This document shows, one piece after another, positions 487-7,790 of a stretch of DNA of 8,328 nt. Each line of letters opens with the position of its first letter. Within the stretch, counting starts at the first letter, position 1. A program made the position numbers and the translations under genes. Under the pieces are notes generated by a model, which saw nothing but the letters and a program-made list of their open reading frames with translations, had not been told where the DNA came from and ran no database searches. The stretch lies in the NCBI RefSeq assembly GCF_056712565.1, contig NZ_JBWXXM010000005.1. One strand, 5' to 3'. Origin of the DNA: a plasmid.

Positions 487-1556
487 CTGCTCTGCCTCTT
501 AACCTCAGCGGCCTTACCATCCCTGAAACTAACAGCATTCTTAAGTTCATTTTCAACTGCGGAGTACTCAGCCTGCTTAGCTTCAAGCTGACGCTGTAGT
601 TTTTTCTGAACGTCACGCCATCCCGGAAATCCGGTGACCTTCACGTCAACACTCTTCTGAGCGTTTTCAAGCTCTCCTGCAACTCTGGAAACAGTAGCTT
701 GCTTACTCTGTACATCACTTTCAGCCTTCGCCAGTTCAGCTTTCGCCTCAGCTAAACGCTTCTCTGCTTCCGCCACCGCCTGTTTCTCTTCATTAAGAGT
801 TTCATGTTCAGCGACCTCTGCATTTTCACGAGCCTTTTCTTCAGCTTCCTTCTGTTTATTCACATCACCAATTTTACTTTGCAATGTATTTTTATAAGAA
901 TTAAGTTTGCTAATATCTGCATCAAGCTGATTTGATTTTTTTTGCAACTCATCAACATCCCTCTCAAGATCAGTGATACCATGATAAGAATGATGCTTGA
1001 ATACTTTTTTCATCTCCTCGATTTTCTTCTGTTTTTCACTAATCTGTGTAGCAATTTTATTCTTCTGCTTTTGTTTTTCATTAATTACATTACCCACCAC
1101 CTTCGAACTCTTATCCATATCACTGACCTGAGCATTCGTTGGTGCAGTATTAACTGAAGCAGTGTTATTGTTGTTATTTCCTGAGCTTTCTGCAAAAAGT
1201 GATGGCATATCACTAATTAAAGAATTAAGAACTCTGGAGACCCCTCCAAATGGATTATCAACCAGAGTTGAATTATCTTCTGTCATAACAATACCATTCA
1301 TCACCGGAAGGCCATCATTATTAATGACAACATCACCCCACGGAGTCAGATATGACTCACCGGTTTTCATCACAGTTGATGTAGAACCAGATGAATTTGA
1401 ATTTCCCTGACCACCATTATTACCATGCCCAGAGCCACCACCCCAGTGAACCCCACTATTACTATTATTATTTCCACCTTGCTGATTCAGATTCGCCCCT
1501 GTTCCCCCCATAGACTCACCAGCAGTTGGTCCATATCCACTTAGTTCTTTAGCCAT
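480..1556 (-). CDS. cka: Colicin, N-terminal translocation and central coiled-coil/receptor-binding part (358 codons), ending at a premature stop caused by a frameshift
   Basis: ORF track 480..1556 (-). Gly/Asn/Ser-rich N-terminus followed by [36 protein letters not shown]...[13 protein letters not shown], which closely resembles my recollection of the colicin A Tol-dependent translocation domain ([38 protein letters not shown]...RVLNSLV). A long K/E/A-rich coiled-coil follows. SD-like AGAGGA lies 7 nt upstream of the ATG (minus strand, + coords 1563..1568). Assignment to colicin K specifically is circumstantial: total length would be about 548 codons if the frameshift were repaired, and the immunity protein is 96 aa. 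Confidence 0.92.
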
Positions 1557-1600
1557 AAATTCCTCTTTGATAATTAAAACAATAAATTAAAAACAATATA

Positions 1601-1631
1601 CTGTACATATAACCACTGGTTTTATGTACAG
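1601..1631 (-). promoter_or_regulatory. Tandem overlapping LexA boxes (SOS operator) of the colicin promoter
   Basis: Minus-strand sequence CTGTACATAAAACCAGTGGTTATATGTACAG contains two overlapping CTGT-N8-(A/C)CAG motifs, the double SOS box typical of colicin promoters. It lies about 45 bp upstream of the colicin ATG. A candidate -35 TTGACA is at 1659..1664 (minus strand). Confidence 0.85.
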
Positions 1632-1796
1632 TAAAAACCTACTACTCAGCATTGTCCATGTCAAGAGCATGGATTTTCATTTTTGCAATAAGGATCACAC
1701 TATGGGGAGGCAGGCATTGAGAACGTCGAAACAGAACACCGGAGCAAATCAGGATGAGATATAAAACTGTTGGATCATGAAAAAACGGAGAACGAT

Positions 1797-2087
1797 GTGA
1801 GCAAATCACCCCGCCATAAACTGAACAAAACAGACAAACGACTTCTCGACACCCTTGTTGCTGCCGGATATGAGCATGACAAAGCCCGTGACCTCATCCA
1901 GAAACAGGTTTACACGCTGACACTGGCTGATCAGCGTCATGTGGTCAGTGAAATCAGTAATGGTGTGAATCCCACCCAGGCTTACTCGGCGGTATACCAG
2001 GCAAGACGCATTCGCCTCGCCCGTAAATATCTGAACGGTAAAAAGGTTATGGAAGAAACCGGGGAAAATACGCCCCCATCAGCGTAA
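1797..2087 (+). CDS. Hypothetical small basic protein (96 aa from GTG 1797; 105 aa if TTG 1770 is used)
   Basis: ORF track 1770..2087 (+). There is no in-frame ATG near the 5' end; GTG at 1797 is preceded by GGAG (1788..1791) at good spacing. The product is hydrophilic and basic (VSKSPRHKLNKTDKRLLDTLVAAGYEHDKARDLI...). I do not recognise a family and it could be non-coding. Confidence 0.25.
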   Translation: MSKSPRHKLNKTDKRLLDTLVAAGYEHDKARDLIQKQVYTLTLADQRHVVSEISNGVNPTQAYSAVYQARRIRLARKYLNGKKVMEETGENTPPSA

Positions 2088-2357
2088 GGATTTCTTTTGC
2101 CGCTCCAGAGACTCCAGTTTTTTACGCAAATCCTCTCTTTTTTGGGCATCTCTGGTGCCAGCCAGCTCTGCTCTCAACTCATCGATCTGAAGTTGTATCT
2201 TCAGTCTGTTACTGAACATTTTCTGTCTGGCATTAACATCCGCAACAATGCCGTTTTTTGTCTTCTCGGCCTTTTGTTGAAAAACATTGCTGTCCGCATG
2301 ACTGGCAACCGAAGCAGAAAGAACACTAAAAAGCAGGACTGGCACACATTTTTTCAC
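2079..2357 (-). CDS. Small secreted/periplasmic protein with Sec signal peptide (92 aa, GTG start); candidate entry-exclusion or envelope protein
   Basis: ORF track 2079..2357 (-). N-terminus MKKCVPVLLFSVLSASVASHA/DSNVF has the n-, h- and c-regions of a signal peptide with an A-x-A-type cleavage site. The ~71-aa mature part is highly charged and helical. GTG start with AGGA about 9 nt upstream. The opposite-strand ORF 2097..2402 looks like antisense noise. Confidence 0.45.
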   Translation of the reverse strand: MKKCVPVLLFSVLSASVASHADSNVFQQKAEKTKNGIVADVNARQKMFSNRLKIQLQIDELRAELAGTRDAQKREDLRKKLESLERQKKSLR

Positions 2358-2478
2358 GGGATTATTCCTGACTCATTGACCATCAAATCACATTGGGAGT
2401 AAACCGACGTATGATAAGAGATACTCTTCGGAGATATAACTCCCTGAGTATCAAGATTAAAAACGCAAGGAGATGTTT

Positions 2479-2901
2479 ATGAGATCTGCCGCTGCCAGGC
2501 TGCTTCTGATACCTCTGATAACAGCAACAATAGCTCTTACAGGATGCACACCAAAGACCAGCCTGGAACGACATACCCGGCATTATGTTTATGCTTCAGA
2601 TGATGGATTTGATCCTAACTTCTACACCCAGAAAGCAGACACCATACGTATGATGCTCCCGTTCTTTCAGCAGTTCCGGGATATGGGGATGAAAGACAAA
2701 GCAGCCGGAGTATCAGCAGAAACGGCACAGCAACGTGTAAAAGAATTCCACTCAGAAAAATTTTTTCACTCACTCCGGAGCACAACAGCCTTTGCTGGCA
2801 GAAAATACACAAACAGCGATATGCCTTCGCCGAAAAAAATGAAACTAATGGCAGACACCATTTCTGCGGTTTATCTCGATGGATACGAGGGCAGACAGTA
2901 A
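2479..2901 (+). CDS. Lipoprotein (140 aa), possible entry-exclusion-type protein of ColE1-like plasmids
   Basis: ORF track 2473..2901; I prefer ATG 2479 because the SD AAGGA (2467..2471) is 7 nt upstream. N-terminus MRSAAARLLLIPLITATIALTGC is a signal peptide ending in the lipobox L-T-G-C. The position between colicin promoter and mob genes is where ColE1 carries exc genes as I remember it; homology was not verified. Confidence 0.65.
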   Translation: MRSAAARLLLIPLITATIALTGCTPKTSLERHTRHYVYASDDGFDPNFYTQKADTIRMMLPFFQQFRDMGMKDKAAGVSAETAQQRVKEFHSEKFFHSLRSTTAFAGRKYTNSDMPSPKKMKLMADTISAVYLDGYEGRQ

Positions 2902-3274
2902 GGGATTTACCATAATCCCTTAATTGTACGCACCGCTGAAATGCGTTCAGCGCGATCACGGCTGCTGACAGGTAAAAATGGCAACAAACCACCCGAAAAG
3001 CTGCCGCGATCGCACCTGATAAATTTTAACCGTATGCATAGCTATTCAGCCATGTGAATAACGCTGGTTTTGCCTGCGTAAACCTCATGACACTGTTTTT
3101 TTTCCATCTTTTCAGTTGATGACATACGCAGACATCGCGGGATGAGGCTGAGGAATGAGCGCGATCTGGCAAAGAGGCAAAACACAGCAACAAAAACGAC
3201 ACGCCAGAATCGCGCCCGGATGCGTTTTTAACGCGTTCCGGTACCATCTGGCAACCTCCCGGAACAACTCACCG

Positions 3275-4873
3275 TCACATCCCTATTGACGGGCCACGCC
3301 ATACCCGTGCTTCCCGTTCCTGCTCTTCATGCCAGGACCGCGCACGCTCCCGTTCCAGGCGTGCCTGCCTTTCCTGTTCATCCCTTATCTGCTGTTCGTG
3401 ATAAATAACCGACTCAAGTGGTCCACCTGCCCGGCTAATCTCTGCACCTGCTGACTCAAGTCGTCGCACTGTTCCCTCAGTTGCCCGTTCTCCTGTCGTG
3501 TCAGCTCGAACATATGCTGCAAATCCGTGAAGGCGCTCTCCCAGTCTTTCAGCCGCTGCGTATAGTCCTGCTGCAATTGCTCTAAGGCGTTCAGTAAGTG
3601 CATTTCCAGCTCTGTCATACTCACTTACTCCCTGACCAGTCTTACTGCGTTCTTCTTCTCCACCGTCCAGTTGTTTTCCCCCTTCACCCCGGACGGCAAC
3701 ACCAGAAATTTCCCGTTCCTGCCCTCGTGATACGTCACACCCCATGTTTTTTCCCGGAGTTTCGCCAGCGTCTCTTCCTGGTCCCTGATAGCCAGGATGT
3801 TCGCCGCAATCCGGCTTTCCTGCCACTGAATCAGCCCCCATGACGCCAGAAAAATCCCGCCCGTGACGCAAAGCGCCGTCAGCGACGGGTACAGTATCCG
3901 CCCTTTGACCAGCTTCCAGAGCAGCTCTTCCTGCCGCCGGGCCAGTTCGTTCTCTGTGGCGCTGAACTGCGCGTTCACGGCACTGTTCAGCGTCTCCAGT
4001 TGTTCTTTCACCGCTGCTGTGTGTGCGCTGATAGCGTCTCTGATTTTCTGCCCGTTTAAGTTCAGTTCCCTGTCTACAGACGCTTCGAGCTTCCTGAACT
4101 CGCTGTTCAGCATGTTCTCTGTAGAGACGGCACGCTCTTTCAGTTTCTTCTCGAAGTCTGTCCCCATTTGTAAAAGATTGCTCATACAGCGCCCCTTTCA
4201 GCCTGAGATTACGCCCACCCTCCGGGTCGGCGATACTGATACTGCTCCTGGTTGTCCTCACAACCTCAAAACCTGCCGCTGTAAGCGCCTCAGTGACATC
4301 CTGACGCGTTTTTAGCGCTCCGGCATGGTAAAGAGCCTCCAGTCCCCTCGTAATCGCTTCTGCGGCCTCCTGTTTCGCTTTCGGCAGATTATTCGGGGTG
4401 ACAAGTGTCCGCCTGTTCTCCGGTGCGTTCGGGTCGTGCAGCCCGTAATGGTGATTCACCAGTGTCTGCCAGGCATTGATTCGCGGACGGTCCGCTCGGT
4501 CGTAATAGGGCTGGAGCCGTTTTCCGCTCGCCAGCTCCATATTCGGGATGACAAAATTCAGCTCAAGACGCCCCTTGTCCTGGTGCTCCACCCACAGGAT
4601 GCTGTACTGATTTTTTTCAAGACCGGGCATCAGTACCCGCTCAAAGCTCTCCATCACCCTTTCACGCTCTCCCGGTGGCAGGGTCTGCTCTGCAAAAGAC
4701 AGAACCCCCGAGGTGTATTTTTTCGCAAACGGCGTGGCATCGATGAGTTCCCGCACCTCTTCGGGAGCACCCCGCAGAACTCTCGCCCCTTCCCGGTTAC
4801 GCTCCCGGCCCAGCAGGTAATCAACCGGACCACTGCCACCGCCTTTTCCCCTGGCATGAAACTTAACTATCAT
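3275..4873 (-). CDS. mbeA: Mobilization relaxase MbeA (ColE1-type, MOB HEN family)
   Basis: ORF track 3275..4900 (-). From the internal Met it reads MIVKFHARGKGGGSGPVDYLLGRERNREGA...ILWVEHQDKGRLELNFVIPNMEL...QPYYDRADRPRINAWQ, matching ColE1 MbeA as I recall it. The ATG at 4873..4871 overlaps the mbeC stop in the usual coupled arrangement. The compositionally odd C-terminal half fits mbeB and mbeD being encoded in other frames. Confidence 0.92.
   Translation of the reverse strand: MIVKFHARGKGGGSGPVDYLLGRERNREGARVLRGAPEEVRELIDATPFAKKYTSGVLSFAEQTLPPGERERVMESFERVLMPGLEKNQYSILWVEHQDKGRLELNFVIPNMELASGKRLQPYYDRADRPRINAWQTLVNHHYGLHDPNAPENRRTLVTPNNLPKAKQEAAEAITRGLEALYHAGALKTRQDVTEALTAAGFEVVRTTRSSISIADPEGGRNLRLKGALYEQSFTNGDRLREETERACRLYREHAEQRVQEARSVCRQGTELKRAENQRRYQRTHSSGERTTGDAEQCRERAVQRHRERTGPAAGRAALEAGQRADTVPVADGALRHGRDFSGVMGADSVAGKPDCGEHPGYQGPGRDAGETPGKNMGCDVSRGQEREISGVAVRGEGGKQLDGGEEERSKTGQGVSEYDRAGNALTERLRAIAAGLYAAAERLGERLHGFAAYVRADTTGERATEGTVRRLESAGAEISRAGGPLESVIYHEQQIRDEQERQARLERERARSWHEEQEREARVWRGPSIGM
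3385..3618 (-). CDS. mbeD: Mobilization protein MbeD, nested within the 3' part of mbeA in another frame
   Basis: ORF track 3385..3624 (-), product M(S)MTELEMHLLNALEQLQQDYTQRLKDWESAFTDLQHMFELTRQENGQLREQCDDLSQQVQRLAGQVDHLSRLF. ATG at 3618 with GGGAG upstream; an alternative GTG at 3624 abuts the mbeB stop. Confidence 0.75.
   Translation of the reverse strand: MTELEMHLLNALEQLQQDYTQRLKDWESAFTDLQHMFELTRQENGQLREQCDDLSQQVQRLAGQVDHLSRLFITNSR
3625..4185 (-). CDS. mbeB: Mobilization protein MbeB, nested within mbeA in another frame
   Basis: ORF track 3625..4185 (-), product MSNLLQMGTDFEKKLKERAVSTENMLNSEFRKLEASVDREL... with a hydrophobic segment (LYPSLTALCVTGGIFLASWGLI). SD-like AAAGGGG upstream of the ATG. 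The stop abuts the mbeD start. Confidence 0.8.
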   Translation of the reverse strand: MSNLLQMGTDFEKKLKERAVSTENMLNSEFRKLEASVDRELNLNGQKIRDAISAHTAAVKEQLETLNSAVNAQFSATENELARRQEELLWKLVKGRILYPSLTALCVTGGIFLASWGLIQWQESRIAANILAIRDQEETLAKLREKTWGVTYHEGRNGKFLVLPSGVKGENNWTVEKKNAVRLVRE

Positions 4874-5210
4874 CCCGTTCTCCCTGTTTACGGACCTCAT
4901 CCCTCAGCTCACTCAGTTCACGTCCGATGGCCATCAGTGCAGCCACCACATGAACCCGGTCATGCCCCGACCACTGTCCGCTGTTTATCTTCCGGGCTAT
5001 CTGATTCAGGTTATTGCCGACCGAAGCGAACTGGCGCAACAGCGGCGGTGCCAGTGTCGGAAGACCTGACGTTTTCGATGGCGGTGCCCCCAGGCAGACC
5101 TTACGCATCCATGACGCAAGTTGTTTTCCCTCACAACGTGCCAGCAGCCGCGCATGTTCCTCATCCGTGACCCGTATCGTGAGCATCCTTTCGCGTTTCA
5201 CCGGTATCAT
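4863..5210 (-). CDS. mbeC: Mobilization accessory protein MbeC (relaxosome component)
   Basis: ORF track 4863..5363 (-). The conserved part MLTIRVTDEEHARLLARCEGKQLASWMRKVCLG...LAPPLLRQFASVGNNLNQIARKINSG...HVVAALMAIGRELSELR matches ColE1 MbeC/MobC as I recall it. Start chosen at ATG 5210 (GGAGG 7 nt upstream); ATG 5186 is an alternative. The first 52 codons of the track ORF are treated as spurious. Confidence 0.85.
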   Translation of the reverse strand: MIPVKRERMLTIRVTDEEHARLLARCEGKQLASWMRKVCLGAPPSKTSGLPTLAPPLLRQFASVGNNLNQIARKINSGQWSGHDRVHVVAALMAIGRELSELRDEVRKQGERDDS

Positions 5211-5253: not shown

Positions 5254-5445
5254 GTGACTAAACAGGAAAAAACCGCCCTTAACATGGCCCGCTTCATCAG
5301 AAGCCAGACGCTGACCCTGCTGGAAAAACTGAATGAACTGGACGCCGACGACCAGGCTGACATCTGCGAAGCGCTTCACGACCACGCTGACGAGCTTTAC
5401 CGCAGCTGCCTCGCACGCTTCGGAGATGACGGTGAAAACCTCTGA
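5254..5445 (+). CDS. rop: Rop/Rom RNA one modulator protein (63 aa, GTG start)
   Basis: VTKQEKTALNMARFIRSQTLTLLEKLNELDADDQADICEALHDHADELYRSCLARFGDDGENL is near-identical to ColE1/pMB1 Rop as I recall it. GTG start at 5254 with GGAG about 10 nt upstream. The ORF-track entry 5014..5445 is an in-frame upstream extension with no support. Confidence 0.93.
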   Translation: MTKQEKTALNMARFIRSQTLTLLEKLNELDADDQADICEALHDHADELYRSCLARFGDDGENL

Positions 5446-6288: not shown

Positions 6289-6392
6289 ACAGCATTTGGT
6301 ATCTGTGCTCCACTAAAGCCAGTTACCCGGTTAAGCAGTCCCCAACTGACTTAACCTTCGACTAAACCGCCTCCCCAGGCGGTTTTTTCGTT
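6289..6392 (+). ncRNA. RNAI antisense copy-number control RNA
   Basis: Starts at ACAGCATTTGGTATCTG (pMB1 RNAI starts ACAGTATTTGGTATCTG) and ends at the hairpin plus T-run ...ccgcctccccaggcggttttttcgtt. Its promoter has -35 TTGAAG (6254..6259) and -10 TACACT (6276..6281) as in pMB1. Loop sequences differ from pMB1. Confidence 0.8.
6364..6392 (+). terminator. RNAI intrinsic terminator
   Basis: Stem aaaccgcct / aggcggttt with loop cccc, followed by a T-run (ttttttcgtt). Confidence 0.7.
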
Positions 6393-6459: not shown

Positions 6460-6500
6460 TGGATTTGCCCCTATATTTCCAGACACCTGTTATCACTTAA
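6460..6500. repeat. IS2 terminal inverted repeat (IRR)
   Basis: Imperfect inverted repeat partner of 7749..7790; shared core CCAGACA...ATATCACTTA. Confidence 0.8.
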
Positions 6501-7376
6501 CCCATTACTGGCTTGCTGCCGTAGATATTCCCGTGGCGAGCGATAACCCAGTGCACTATGCGGATGCCATTCGTTATAATGCTCGAACGCCTCTGCAAGG
6601 TTCTTTGCTGCCGTTAACCCGTCTGGTTTGGGCATGACACTGATGTAGTCACGCTTTATCGTTTTCACGAAGCTCTCTGCTATGCCGTTACTCTCCGGAC
6701 TCCGCACCGCCGTGCTCTTCGGTTCAAGCCCCAACATCCGGGCAAACTGCCGTGTTTCATTAGCCCGGTAGCATGAACCATTATCCGTCAGCCACTCTAC
6801 TGGAGACGCCGGAAGCTCGTTGCCGAAGCGGCGTTCCACCGCTCCCAGCATGACGTCCTGTACTGTTTCACTGTTGAAGCCGCCCGTAGTGACCGCCCAG
6901 TGCAGTGCCTCACGGTCACAGCAGTCCAGCGCGAACGTGACTCGCAGTTTTTCTCCGTTATCACAGCGGAACTCGAACCCGTCAGAGCACCATCGCTGAT
7001 TACTTTCTTTCACAGCCACTCTGCCTGTATGTGCCCGTTTCGATGGCGGTACAGCAGGTTTTCGCTCAAGCAACAGCGCATTCTGGCGCATGATCCGGTA
7101 AACACGTTTGGCATTGATCGCAGGCATACCATCAAGTTCTGCCTGTCTGCGAAGCAGCGCCCATACCCGACGATAACCATACGTGGGCAGCTCTCCGATA
7201 ACATGGTGTATACGGAGAAGCACATCCGTATCATCAGTGTGACGACTGCGGCGGCCATCCATCCAGTCATCGGTTCGTCTGAGAATGACGTGCAACTGCG
7301 CACGCGACACCCGGAGACAACGGCTGACTAAGCTTACTCCCCATCCCCGGGCAATAAGGGCGCGTGCGCTATCCAC
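6471..7376 (-). CDS. insD: IS2 transposase OrfB (InsD), normally expressed as an OrfAB fusion by -1 frameshifting
   Basis: ORF track 6471..7376 (-) 301 aa, (M/V)[33 protein letters not shown]...[12 protein letters not shown]... with a DDE-type integrase core (...[37 protein letters not shown]...). The first codon is GTG and overlaps the end of insC. Confidence 0.95.
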
Positions 7377-7699
7377 TTTTTTGCCCGTCCATATTCAACG
7401 GCTTCTTTGAGGAGTTCATTTTCCATCGTTTTCTTGCCGAGCAGGCGCTGGAGTTCTTTAATCTGCTTCATGGCGGCAGCAAGTTCAGAGGCAGGAACAA
7501 CCTGTTCTCCGGCGGCGACAGCAGTAAGACTTCCTTCCTGGTATTGCTTACGCCAGAGAAATAACTGGCTGGCTGCTACACCATGTTGCCGGGCAACGAG
7601 GGAGACCGTCATCCCTGGTTCAAAGCTCTGCTGAACAATTGCGATCTTTTCCTGTGTGGTACGCCGTCTGCGTTTCTCCGGTCCTAAGACATCAATCAT
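7334..7699 (-). CDS. insC: IS2 OrfA (InsC), helix-turn-helix regulator / N-terminal part of the transposase
   Basis: From ATG at 7699: [58 protein letters not shown]...[26 protein letters not shown]. The 15 extra N-terminal codons in the track ORF 7334..7744 are rejected. Confidence 0.93.
7377..7383 (-). other. IS2 programmed -1 ribosomal frameshift heptamer (A AAA AAG) at the insC/insD overlap
   Basis: Minus-strand sequence ggcA AAA AAG tgg is in the OrfA zero frame. A -1 slip reads AAA AAA GTG GAT AGC = KKVDS..., continuing into InsD. This is a known IS3-family mechanism. Confidence 0.7.
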
Positions 7700-7748
7700 C
7701 TGCTCTCCAATGACTAGTCTAAAAACTAGTATTAAGACTATCACTTAA

Positions 7749-7790
7749 ATAAGTGATATTGGTTGTCTGGAGATTCAGGGGGCCAGTCTA
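7749..7790. repeat. IS2 terminal inverted repeat (IRL)
   Basis: Reverse complement from 7790 reads TAGACTGGCCCCCTGAATCTCCAGACAACCAATATCACTTA... The lysis-gene reading frame terminates inside this repeat at TGA 7775..7777. Confidence 0.8.

Follow-up and report, generated by a model that had tools for sequence, protein, structure and literature searches.

The region between the colicin promoter and the mob genes of the window, by which we mean the whole 8,328-nucleotide stretch of plasmid DNA that was analysed, is very probably a variable accessory slot of a ColE1-type colicin K plasmid, which runs from the cka promoter to cer and holds three small genes, here termed ORF-A, ORF-B and exc2, that are inherited independently of one another. 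Its borders would be the cka promoter, which is under SOS control, on one side and cer on the other. Window positions 1600-3300 are 100% identical to CP088446.1, and the colicin K plasmid that the window represents is of the pColK type; in CP088446.1, PGAP annotation places three proteins between the cka and mbe genes, one of them an Exc2 family lipoprotein and the other two hypothetical. All three genes are genuine and conserved. An initial sequence-only reading of the DNA had proposed that they form an envelope-protein module; the region is instead a patchwork of ordinary accessory genes that are already catalogued, not a new envelope module, and nothing in it indicates a new kind of system. 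ColE1-type plasmids are the classic model of copy-number control and mobilisation and often carry bacteriocin and resistance genes. In ORF-A and ORF-B they contain two small genes under purifying selection that are unexplained after fifty years of work on such plasmids; this modest gap is within reach of simple genetics.

The mosaic structure of the slot emerges from its comparison with ColE1, to which homology (blastn) is limited to window positions 1555-1697 and 2411-3052. The intervening stretch, 1698-2410, which comprises the ORF-A/ORF-B block, stands in place of ColE1 exc1 and has no homology to the exc1 region by blastn. In both plasmids the slot extends from the colicin promoter to exc2, but in ColE1 it contains one gene, whereas here there are two convergent genes. 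Past exc2, at 2905..2934 (minus strand), lies the core of the multimer-resolution site cer, with its XerC/XerD crossover; the sequence there, ATTTACCATAATCCCTTAATTGTACGCACC, is the ColE1 cer core in reverse complement. The core begins 3 nucleotides past the exc2 stop codon and is a mosaic boundary of the region; positions 2904-3242 are conserved in ColE1, in pPCP1, in an Escherichia coli pesticin plasmid (L004) and in a colicin-Z-like S. sonnei plasmid (L005). The three genes assort independently: exc2 is accompanied in ColE1 by exc1, without ORF-A or ORF-B; ORF-A lies beside pst without ORF-B or exc2 in pPCP1 and in the pesticin and colicin-Z-like plasmids, abutting cer directly in the latter two; and a copy of ORF-B that is 63% identical to that of the window stands alone at locus L006. 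Mosaic assembly probably proceeded by recombination at or near cer.

The gene adjoining cer, exc2 (2479..2901, plus strand), encodes the 140-residue lipoprotein with the lipobox LTGC that the sequence-only reading had described as uncharacterised. The lipoprotein is indeed present, but its family is named and occurs in hundreds of public plasmids: the product matches the Exc2 family of NCBIfam (NF033828) across profile positions 6-131 of 131, with an E-value of 4.5e-53 and a score of 179.3 bits (curated cutoff, 35 bits). The open reading frame spans 2473-2901 (plus strand), the likely start being the ATG at 2479, which lies 6 nucleotides beyond the Shine-Dalgarno sequence AAGGAG (2467-2472), and the PGAP call in CP088446.1 is the identical 140-residue lipoprotein. 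The L-T-G-C motif at 2536-2547 makes Cys23 the predicted lipidation site (context IALTG-C23), and this cysteine is invariant in the 30 family members compared. Upstream of the gene a consensus scan found a promoter-like site, ATCACA-17-TATGAT (2387..2415, plus strand), which matches the consensus at 9/12 positions, although such sites are no more numerous in the region than in shuffled sequence. Exc2 shares 68% amino-acid identity with its ColE1 counterpart (dN/dS 0.25), and the two are alike in length, in the position of the lipobox and in location, both genes stopping at the cer core, across from where the mbe operon has its 3' end. They differ in what lies upstream, which in ColE1 is the co-directional exc1 and here is the divergent ORF-B together with a lineage-specific hairpin. 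The 126 database relatives of Exc2 extend across the Enterobacterales, with E. coli, Salmonella, Klebsiella, Citrobacter, Serratia, Edwardsiella and Limnobaculum as hosts, and the 5' region of exc2 was found in 696 PLSDB records, 570 of which are typed as mobilisable; non-mobilisable plasmids and large IncF plasmids carry the gene too.

The Exc2 product would leave the cytoplasm through Sec, receive its lipid on Cys23 and be carried by Lol sorting to the outer membrane, on its periplasmic face. This destination is predicted because the residue at +2 is Thr, and from the proteomic classification of a family member. An Exc2 family protein has been detected in Shigella outer-membrane vesicles (PMC4820968, PMC3368891), and in those of S. 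sonnei it amounts to 0.42% of the mass and was assigned to the outer-membrane lipoproteins (PMC4820968), observations that agree with the predicted sorting. The AF2 model of Exc2 (mean pLDDT 77) consists of helices and a beta hairpin; a structure search with it returned no matching solved fold, and no Pfam family, TraT included, matched the protein at E-values up to 1. Scans of Exc2 against PHROGs and PADLOC returned no family, and comparison with PDB sequences gave no significant match.

It is tentatively possible that Exc2 exerts a surface or entry-exclusion type of effect on the cell envelope. Small plasmid-encoded exclusion lipoproteins that act in the envelope of the recipient cell are known, namely TraT of the F plasmid and TrbK of RP4. 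Exc2 is likewise a small plasmid-encoded lipoprotein and its name implies a mechanism of this type; however, it has no similarity in sequence or structure to either protein, nor in sequence or fold to other exclusion proteins. It could be argued that Exc2 is nevertheless a true, maybe ancillary, exclusion factor that resides in the outer membrane of the recipient and, like TraT, lowers mating-pair formation or DNA entry. We consider this doubtful. The proposal draws on the exclusion role historically assigned to Exc2 by Chan et al. 1985, a paper that PMC2831885 and PMC11493245 cite, on the fact that family members are outer-membrane lipoproteins, as TraT is, and abundant in vesicles (PMC4820968), and on the conservation of exc2 beside the mob genes and cer of mobilisable plasmids. 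Against it, the same two secondary sources, PMC2831885 and PMC11493245, describe the ColE1 exclusion phenotype as mild and relate that Yamada et al. 1995 assigned it to mbeD, and the presence of Exc2 on non-mobilisable and large IncF plasmids also counts against an exclusion role. For plasmids of this family, these sources give MbeD (MobD) as the exclusion factor with experimental support. Its gene lies outside the region on the same plasmid (3385-3624, minus strand); the protein belongs to family PF04899 and is unrelated to the products of exc2, ORF-A and ORF-B. The earlier suggestion of entry exclusion thus fits the historical name of Exc2 but conflicts with the credit given to mbeD. It should be emphasized that, since the positional assignment of 1985 was not supported by later work, the label ‘entry exclusion protein 2', which has spread to hundreds of plasmids, is to be read with caution.

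ORF-A (1797..2087, plus strand), present in the list of open reading frames and called by PGAP, is the basic 96-residue frame without an ATG that had been noticed from the sequence. It starts at a GTG, 6 nucleotides past GGAG, and its product has a pI of 9.9; pPCP1-type homologs keep both the GTG and the GGAG, and one distant homolog has an ATG at the same position. A seven-codon mini-ORF (ATG AAA AAA CGG AGA ACG ATG TGA; 1777..1800, plus strand) was read from the sequence immediately before it; the stop codon of the mini-ORF overlaps the ORF-A GTG, and the two may therefore be translationally coupled. The mini-ORF is present in L008 and absent in pPCP1-type homologs. No export signal was seen in ORF-A, which is predicted to be a cytoplasmic, basic four-helix protein of an unnamed family restricted to ColE1-type plasmids. 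Its AF2 model (mean pLDDT 84) has helices at residues 11-22, 27-38, 43-54 and 59-82, the last of which is arginine-rich and includes QARRIRLARK, nearly invariant in the family.

Searches with ORF-A returned few relatives. A profile HMM search of 1.84 billion representative proteins retrieved only 19 cluster representatives, none of which linked the family to a known one (a 510-residue repetitive protein among them was dismissed as spurious), and the gene occurs in 200 PLSDB plasmids. No family was assigned by Pfam, NCBIfam or PADLOC, the PHROG that it matches (phrog_36305) is an uninformative one of unknown function, and comparison with PDB sequences, by single sequence and by profile, gave nothing significant. 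A relationship to the CW_7 repeat of Cpl-7 lysozyme (PDB 5i8l; E 0.023 by single sequence, 0.059 by profile) was rejected, each repeat alone having an i-Evalue of ~22, with no match to Pfam CW_7 and no export signal in the protein. Below threshold, 13 of 17 family members matched DUF3173, for which a literature search found no function, and 8 of 17 the N-terminal domain of RadC (UPF0758_N), the best E-value being 0.004 in each case. ColE1 Exc1 (entry exclusion protein 1) resembles ORF-A in being small, basic and cytoplasmic and in giving hints of DNA binding, namely weak matches to phrog_66 (E 1.3e-4), an excisionase/regulator family, and to mad1 of PADLOC (E 4.9e-5). The idea that ORF-A is a diverged Exc1 was discarded, however, as the probability from hhalign, with the ORF-A alignment compared to Exc1, was 0.1%; ORF-B, too, has no detectable homology to ColE1 exc1.

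The relatives of ORF-A are informative in their genomic setting. On pPCP1 of Yersinia pestis, the hypothetical gene that lies between pst and pla (WP_002221218; probably YPPCP1.06, by numbering) encodes a protein with 76% amino-acid identity to ORF-A over residues 2-83. It shares the GTG start and GGAG and the divergent position beside an SOS-controlled bacteriocin gene, but differs in its C-terminal tail and in lacking an adjoining ORF-B or exc2; a literature search found no function for it. Here and in other plasmids ORF-A adjoins a bacteriocin promoter, whereas distant homologs (L010-L014) are translationally coupled to rop; in P0197 and P0201 the start overlaps the rop stop codon (ATGA) and the ori region comes next. 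In pColK-K235 an IS2 element is inserted within ORF-A while ORF-B and exc2 remain, indicating that ORF-A is dispensable. ORF-A behaves as a ColE1-replicon backbone gene, and its coupling to rop in distant relatives, together with its lack of an export signal, speaks against its membership of an envelope module.

Such a gene might encode a nucleic-acid-binding accessory factor in plasmid maintenance or regulation, a role to which the charge of the protein, its genomic position and the sub-threshold matches point. An unlikely but specific form of this proposal is that ORF-A typifies an undescribed accessory family of ColE1-type replicons that binds plasmid RNA or DNA and tunes copy number, multimer resolution or bacteriocin expression. 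RNA I/RNA II, cer and the bacteriocin control region are the candidate targets. If true, the family would include the uncharacterised pst-pla gene of pPCP1 and would be co-translated with Rop in some plasmids. As a gene common to the plague plasmid and coupled to rop elsewhere, ORF-A is a modest lead. It is quite unlikely that ORF-A is more narrowly a plasmid-encoded regulator of the adjacent, divergent bacteriocin promoter. Consistent with that role, ColK, pPCP1 and the pesticin and colicin-Z-like plasmids all have its start ~230-240 nucleotides from the divergent bacteriocin start codon. The DNA between the two starts is conserved, with LexA boxes and a CRP-like site in it, and the protein is basic and helical. 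The distant homologs between rop and ori, however, have no bacteriocin gene nearby, the classical colicin K producer K235 has the IS2-disrupted ORF-A, and ColE1 lacks the gene despite its homologous colicin promoter.

ORF-B (2079..2357, minus strand; also in the list of open reading frames and called by PGAP) corresponds to the 92-residue signal-peptide protein that had been noted on the opposite strand. It starts at a GTG with AGGA 8 nucleotides upstream. By inspection, residues 1-21 (2295-2357, minus strand) constitute a Sec signal peptide, the N-terminus MKKCVPVLLFSVLSASVASHA, followed by DSN after the predicted cleavage site, having a hydrophobic core behind a charged n-region, with S-H-A as the cleavage motif. 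The signal peptide reads MKK-CVPVLLFSVLSASV-ASHA before the Asp at which the mature protein would begin; in the 63%-identical homolog of L006, again judged by inspection, it is MRK-FVTALIIGGFSV-SAHA before a Glu. Mature ORF-B has 71 residues and a pI of 10.2 and is, from its sequence, probably helical. It is a predicted Sec-exported protein of an orphan family and, because of the signal peptide, would be let out into the periplasm as a small, basic, probably helical protein; that it is an envelope or periplasmic accessory protein is our guess. Its 37 close database relatives are all unnamed, it occurs in 118 PLSDB plasmids, and no match was found in Pfam, NCBIfam, PHROGs, PADLOC or PDB sequences. 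Profile searches, which had been suggested for all three products, thus named the Exc2 family and left ORF-A and ORF-B without a curated one. Membership of the Spy/CpxP/ZraP group was rejected (no LTXXQ motif; none of nine family members with a Pfam match at E-values up to 10), as was kinship with DUF1090/YqjC (hhalign probability 0.4%, the signal peptides alone being aligned). Copies of ORF-B in the large plasmids L021 and L022 are decaying fragments of ColK-type plasmids. The single diverged copy at L006 is preceded by part of a sensor kinase gene of the AdeS/BaeS-like kind; this neighbour, in one mosaic instance, gives at most a faint hint of envelope stress.

Between the divergent ORF-B and exc2 lies the inverted repeat GATACTC...GAGTATC, which had been placed at about 2420..2455 and suggested as an operator. 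It occupies 2420-2452, GATACTC (2420-2426) pairing with GAGTATC (2446-2452) and an inner GGAG (2430-2433) with CTCC (2440-2443), in an interrupted hairpin of the form GATACTC-ttc-GGAG-atataa-CTCC-ct-GAGTATC. The bare 7-bp repeat (spacer of at most 30 nucleotides) is in no excess over chance, occurring in 14.5% of shuffles of the 121-nucleotide spacer and at 0.65 per 121 nucleotides in the whole window, whereas the full 11-bp hairpin (-14.2 kcal/mol) is more stable than its shuffles (z -3.8). L008 has the hairpin; in ColE1, and in one Klebsiella and one IncF plasmid, the DNA preceding exc2 lacks it. The inverted repeat is thus real but lineage-specific, and its reading as a conserved operator was rejected, since neither conservation nor covariation was seen.

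This bears on a fuller form of the original proposal, which is that the trio constitutes one envelope or entry-exclusion module in which Exc2 and ORF-B act at the surface, ORF-A is a regulator and the inverted repeat is its operator. The trio does keep its order in ~96 PLSDB plasmids, and in L008 and L009 it retains ~91% nucleotide identity beside a different pore-forming colicin, a co-occurrence that may reflect some functional link; exc2 and ORF-B diverge with a stable hairpin between them; and two of the products, the lipoprotein and ORF-B, carry export signals, as had been stated. The proposal is nonetheless very unlikely. Every gene is found without the others, and most Exc2 plasmids lack ORF-A and ORF-B (696 records for the exc2 5' region versus 200 and 118, respectively). 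In addition, the hairpin is confined to some lineages, ORF-B and exc2 persist in pColK-K235 with a broken ORF-A, and ColE1 exclusion is assigned to mbeD in PMC2831885 and PMC11493245. Independent inheritance within an accessory slot remains the preferred reading.

That the occupants of this slot are genes is evident from their divergence. For all three, the called frame alone is open in diverged homologs and synonymous change is in excess, with Fisher p values of 4e-5, 2.5e-7 and 1e-9 across the three ORFs and of 1e-3 to 1e-9 in the comparisons overall. Values of pN/pS for ORF-A and ORF-B range from 0.33 to 0.47: ORF-A against its pPCP1 homolog gives 0.47 (p 4e-5; sole open frame), and ORF-B gives 0.34 against the L006 homolog (p 2.5e-7) and 0.33 against L008, with stops in the antisense frames. 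It is extremely unlikely that ORF-A, ORF-B or both are chance open frames, for although both start with GTG, match no curated family and have no convincing promoter in the consensus scan, purifying selection is frame-specific at dS ~0.8-1.0 with the other frames closed in homologs, start codons and Shine-Dalgarno sequences are conserved, the AF2 model of ORF-A is confident, and the signal peptide of ORF-B is kept in the 63%-identical homolog.

The window represents a colicin K plasmid of the ColE1 type, and its segment 1600-3300 shows 100% identity with the E. coli plasmid CP088446.1 and >99% identity with dozens of 6.8-7.8 kb plasmids of E. coli, Shigella and Salmonella. In CP088446.1 the region is bounded by cka and cki on one side and on the other by the genes that encode MbeD, MbeB and a relaxosome protein of the MobC family; of the three coding sequences in between, two are annotated as hypothetical proteins and one as an 'Exc2 family lipoprotein'. 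Public records thus already contain this sequence, its gene calls and the Exc2 family. The main difference from the reference plasmid pColK-K235 (NC_006881) is the site of an IS2 copy. In the window this IS3-family element (1331 bp, 6460-7790; minus-strand ORFs at 7334-7744 and 6471-7376) separates the colicin lysis gene from the region of the replication origin; the pColK-K235 copy, to which it is 97.7% identical, is located inside ORF-A, a 96-residue frame, at about window 1879-1884, and thus IS2 was either acquired independently by each plasmid or moved. The RNA I antisense copy-number regulator maps to 6291-6391 (Rfam RF00106, 77 bits) and rop to about 5254-5445. The cka control region contains a double, overlapping LexA box of the kind usual in colicin genes and, between cka and the divergent ORF-A, a CRP-like site (elements at 1600-1634 and 1684-1699) that reads TGCAA-N6-TCACA in the window and TGTGA-N6-TCAC in pPCP1-type plasmids; both box and site are conserved among the aligned ColK, ColE1, pesticin and colicin-Z-like plasmids.

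The three ORFs, lipobox, export signals and inverted repeat described in the sequence-only reading were all found; the observation is thus confirmed, and its interpretation partly supported. ORF-A (1797-2087, plus strand), reported to lack an ATG, starts at a GTG 6 nt after GGAG, an arrangement shared by its pPCP1-type homologs, and a distant homolog has ATG at the equivalent codon. ORF-B (2079-2357, minus strand, 92 residues) also has a GTG start. The lipoprotein frame opens at 2473, and the ATG at 2479, 6 nt after AAGGAG, yields the 140-residue product (2479-2901) called by PGAP. Comparative evidence shows that all three are genes. Against diverged homologs (dS about 0.8-1.0), dN/dS was 0.34 for ORF-A (versus Yersinia pestis pPCP1), 0.25 for the lipoprotein (versus ColE1 Exc2), and 0.22 and 0.29 for ORF-B (versus the 63% identical homolog in L006, which carries ORF-B alone, and that in L008, respectively). 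In a six-frame control the called frame alone was stop-free in both sequences of a pair and displayed the strongest synonymous excess (Fisher p 4e-5, 2.5e-7, 1e-9), with third-codon positions most variable; the long antisense frame over ORF-B is broken in L006. ORF-A and ORF-B are convergent with a 9-nt overlap, and at 2060-2086, within both 3' ends, hairpins that are short and GC-rich precede T-rich runs on either strand and resemble a weak bidirectional terminator.

The proposal that the three genes form one module does not hold; they occur separately and in differing numbers of PLSDB records (ORF-A 200, ORF-B 118, the 5' part of exc2 696), and the region is a mosaic. The trio is found together in about 96 plasmids. 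ORF-A is present without ORF-B or exc2 in pPCP1 (flanked by pst and pla), in a pesticin plasmid of E. coli and in a colicin-Z-like S. sonnei plasmid, while in L006 ORF-B stands alone downstream of an AdeS/BaeS-like sensor kinase fragment, and decaying ORF-B fragments are also present in large plasmids. Homology to ColE1 is limited to the colicin promoter (1555-1697) and the exc2-cer segment (2411-3052), and the 713 bp containing ORF-A and ORF-B occupy the place of exc1; ORF-A itself is unrelated to Exc1, and was rejected as its relative. In L008 and L009 the trio lies beside a different pore-forming colicin, and the L008 trio is about 91% identical to that of the window at the nucleotide level. 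The L008 colicin (1423-2793; 456 residues, ColA_N and Colicin domains), which no NCBIfam model matched, is accompanied by a 174-residue immunity protein (2821-3345). Exc2 ends 3 nt ahead of a cer-type multimer-resolution site (2902-3260; core 2905-2934, minus strand, which we take to be the XerC/XerD core of cer), and sequence conservation with ColE1, pPCP1 and other ColE1-like plasmids extends over 2904-3242. Because ORF-A runs straight into cer in the pesticin and colicin-Z-like plasmids, this site is suggested to be a recombination joint at which these accessory genes are shuffled.

The lipoprotein is assigned by profile to Exc2 (NCBIfam NF033828, 179 bits against a cutoff of 35), a family common in Enterobacterales plasmids; the predicted lipobox is present as L-T-G-C23, and ColE1 Exc2 is 68% identical. 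A family member encoded by the S. sonnei colicin plasmid and classified among the outer-membrane lipoproteins made up 0.42% of the protein mass of outer-membrane vesicles (PMC4820968; also PMC3368891), which is consistent with the Thr at position +2 of Exc2. The suggestion of entry exclusion agrees with the family name but disagrees with the current experimental view. ColE1 Exc1 (4443-4880 of that plasmid), still named an entry exclusion protein, weakly matches a PHROG of the excisionase/transcriptional-regulator type (E 1.3e-4) as well as PADLOC mad1 (E 4.9e-5), and these matches suggest that it is a DNA-binding rather than an envelope protein. ORF-B carries a canonical Sec signal peptide whose end reads ASHA|D and which is retained in the 63% identical homolog. 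It is an orphan for which searches of Pfam, NCBIfam, PHROG, PADLOC and PDB found no relative; the LTXXQ motif is absent, and a relationship to DUF1090 was rejected. A periplasmic accessory or stress-related role would be a guess.

The inverted repeat between ORF-B and exc2 (2420-2426/2446-2452) encloses a further GGAG/CTCC pair. Repeats of 7 bp like this one arise in 14.5% of spacer shuffles and are common across the window; the full hairpin (-14.2 kcal/mol) is more stable than shuffled sequence (z -3.8). It is present in the window and L008, and a weak promoter-like site (2387-2415) immediately precedes it. In ColE1, a Klebsiella plasmid and an IncF plasmid the corresponding sequence ahead of exc2 does not fold into the hairpin, and no covariation was found, so the proposed operator is not a conserved one. 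Nothing supports a conserved regulatory role; the hairpin could be a lineage-specific operator or 5' untranslated-region structure.

Of the three products of the supposed envelope module only the lipoprotein and ORF-B carry export signals; ORF-A is basic (pI 9.9) and has none, and thus the envelope label does not apply to it. Its AlphaFold2 model comprises four confidently predicted helices (mean pLDDT 84), the last bearing the nearly invariant YQARRIRLARK. The family has very few members (19 representatives in 1.84 billion proteins), and its two most distant ones directly follow rop, their start overlapping the rop stop (ATGA), and precede the ori region. This 4-nt overlap ahead of ori was seen in L010 (457-744) and L011-L014 (for example L011, 4822-5246), plasmids or contigs that encode type VI secretion effectors and immunity proteins as cargo; a PLSDB search at the DNA level did not find the order rop, ORF-A, ori. 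We infer a nucleic-acid-binding role for ORF-A, as an accessory factor of ColE1-type backbones. Fold comparisons with PDB and BFVD returned generic helical matches only, and the sub-threshold sequence matches (DUF3173, the RadC N-terminal domain and the Cpl-7 CW_7 repeat) are leads, not evidence. It could be argued that ORF-A instead regulates the neighbouring bacteriocin promoter, which its position in four plasmid types would fit. The relatives coupled to rop do not fit such a role, however, and neither does the disruption of ORF-A by IS2 in the classical colicin K producer, which also shows that pColK-K235 is maintained without an intact copy of the gene. As a conserved backbone gene tied to rop or a bacteriocin promoter, and shared with pPCP1, ORF-A is the only lead that merits a small experiment. 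Immediately upstream, a seven-codon mini-ORF (1777-1800, MKKRRTM), is absent from pPCP1-type homologs and kept in L008 as MKNRRTM; its terminal ATGTGA overlaps the GTG start of ORF-A, and it may couple translation into that gene.
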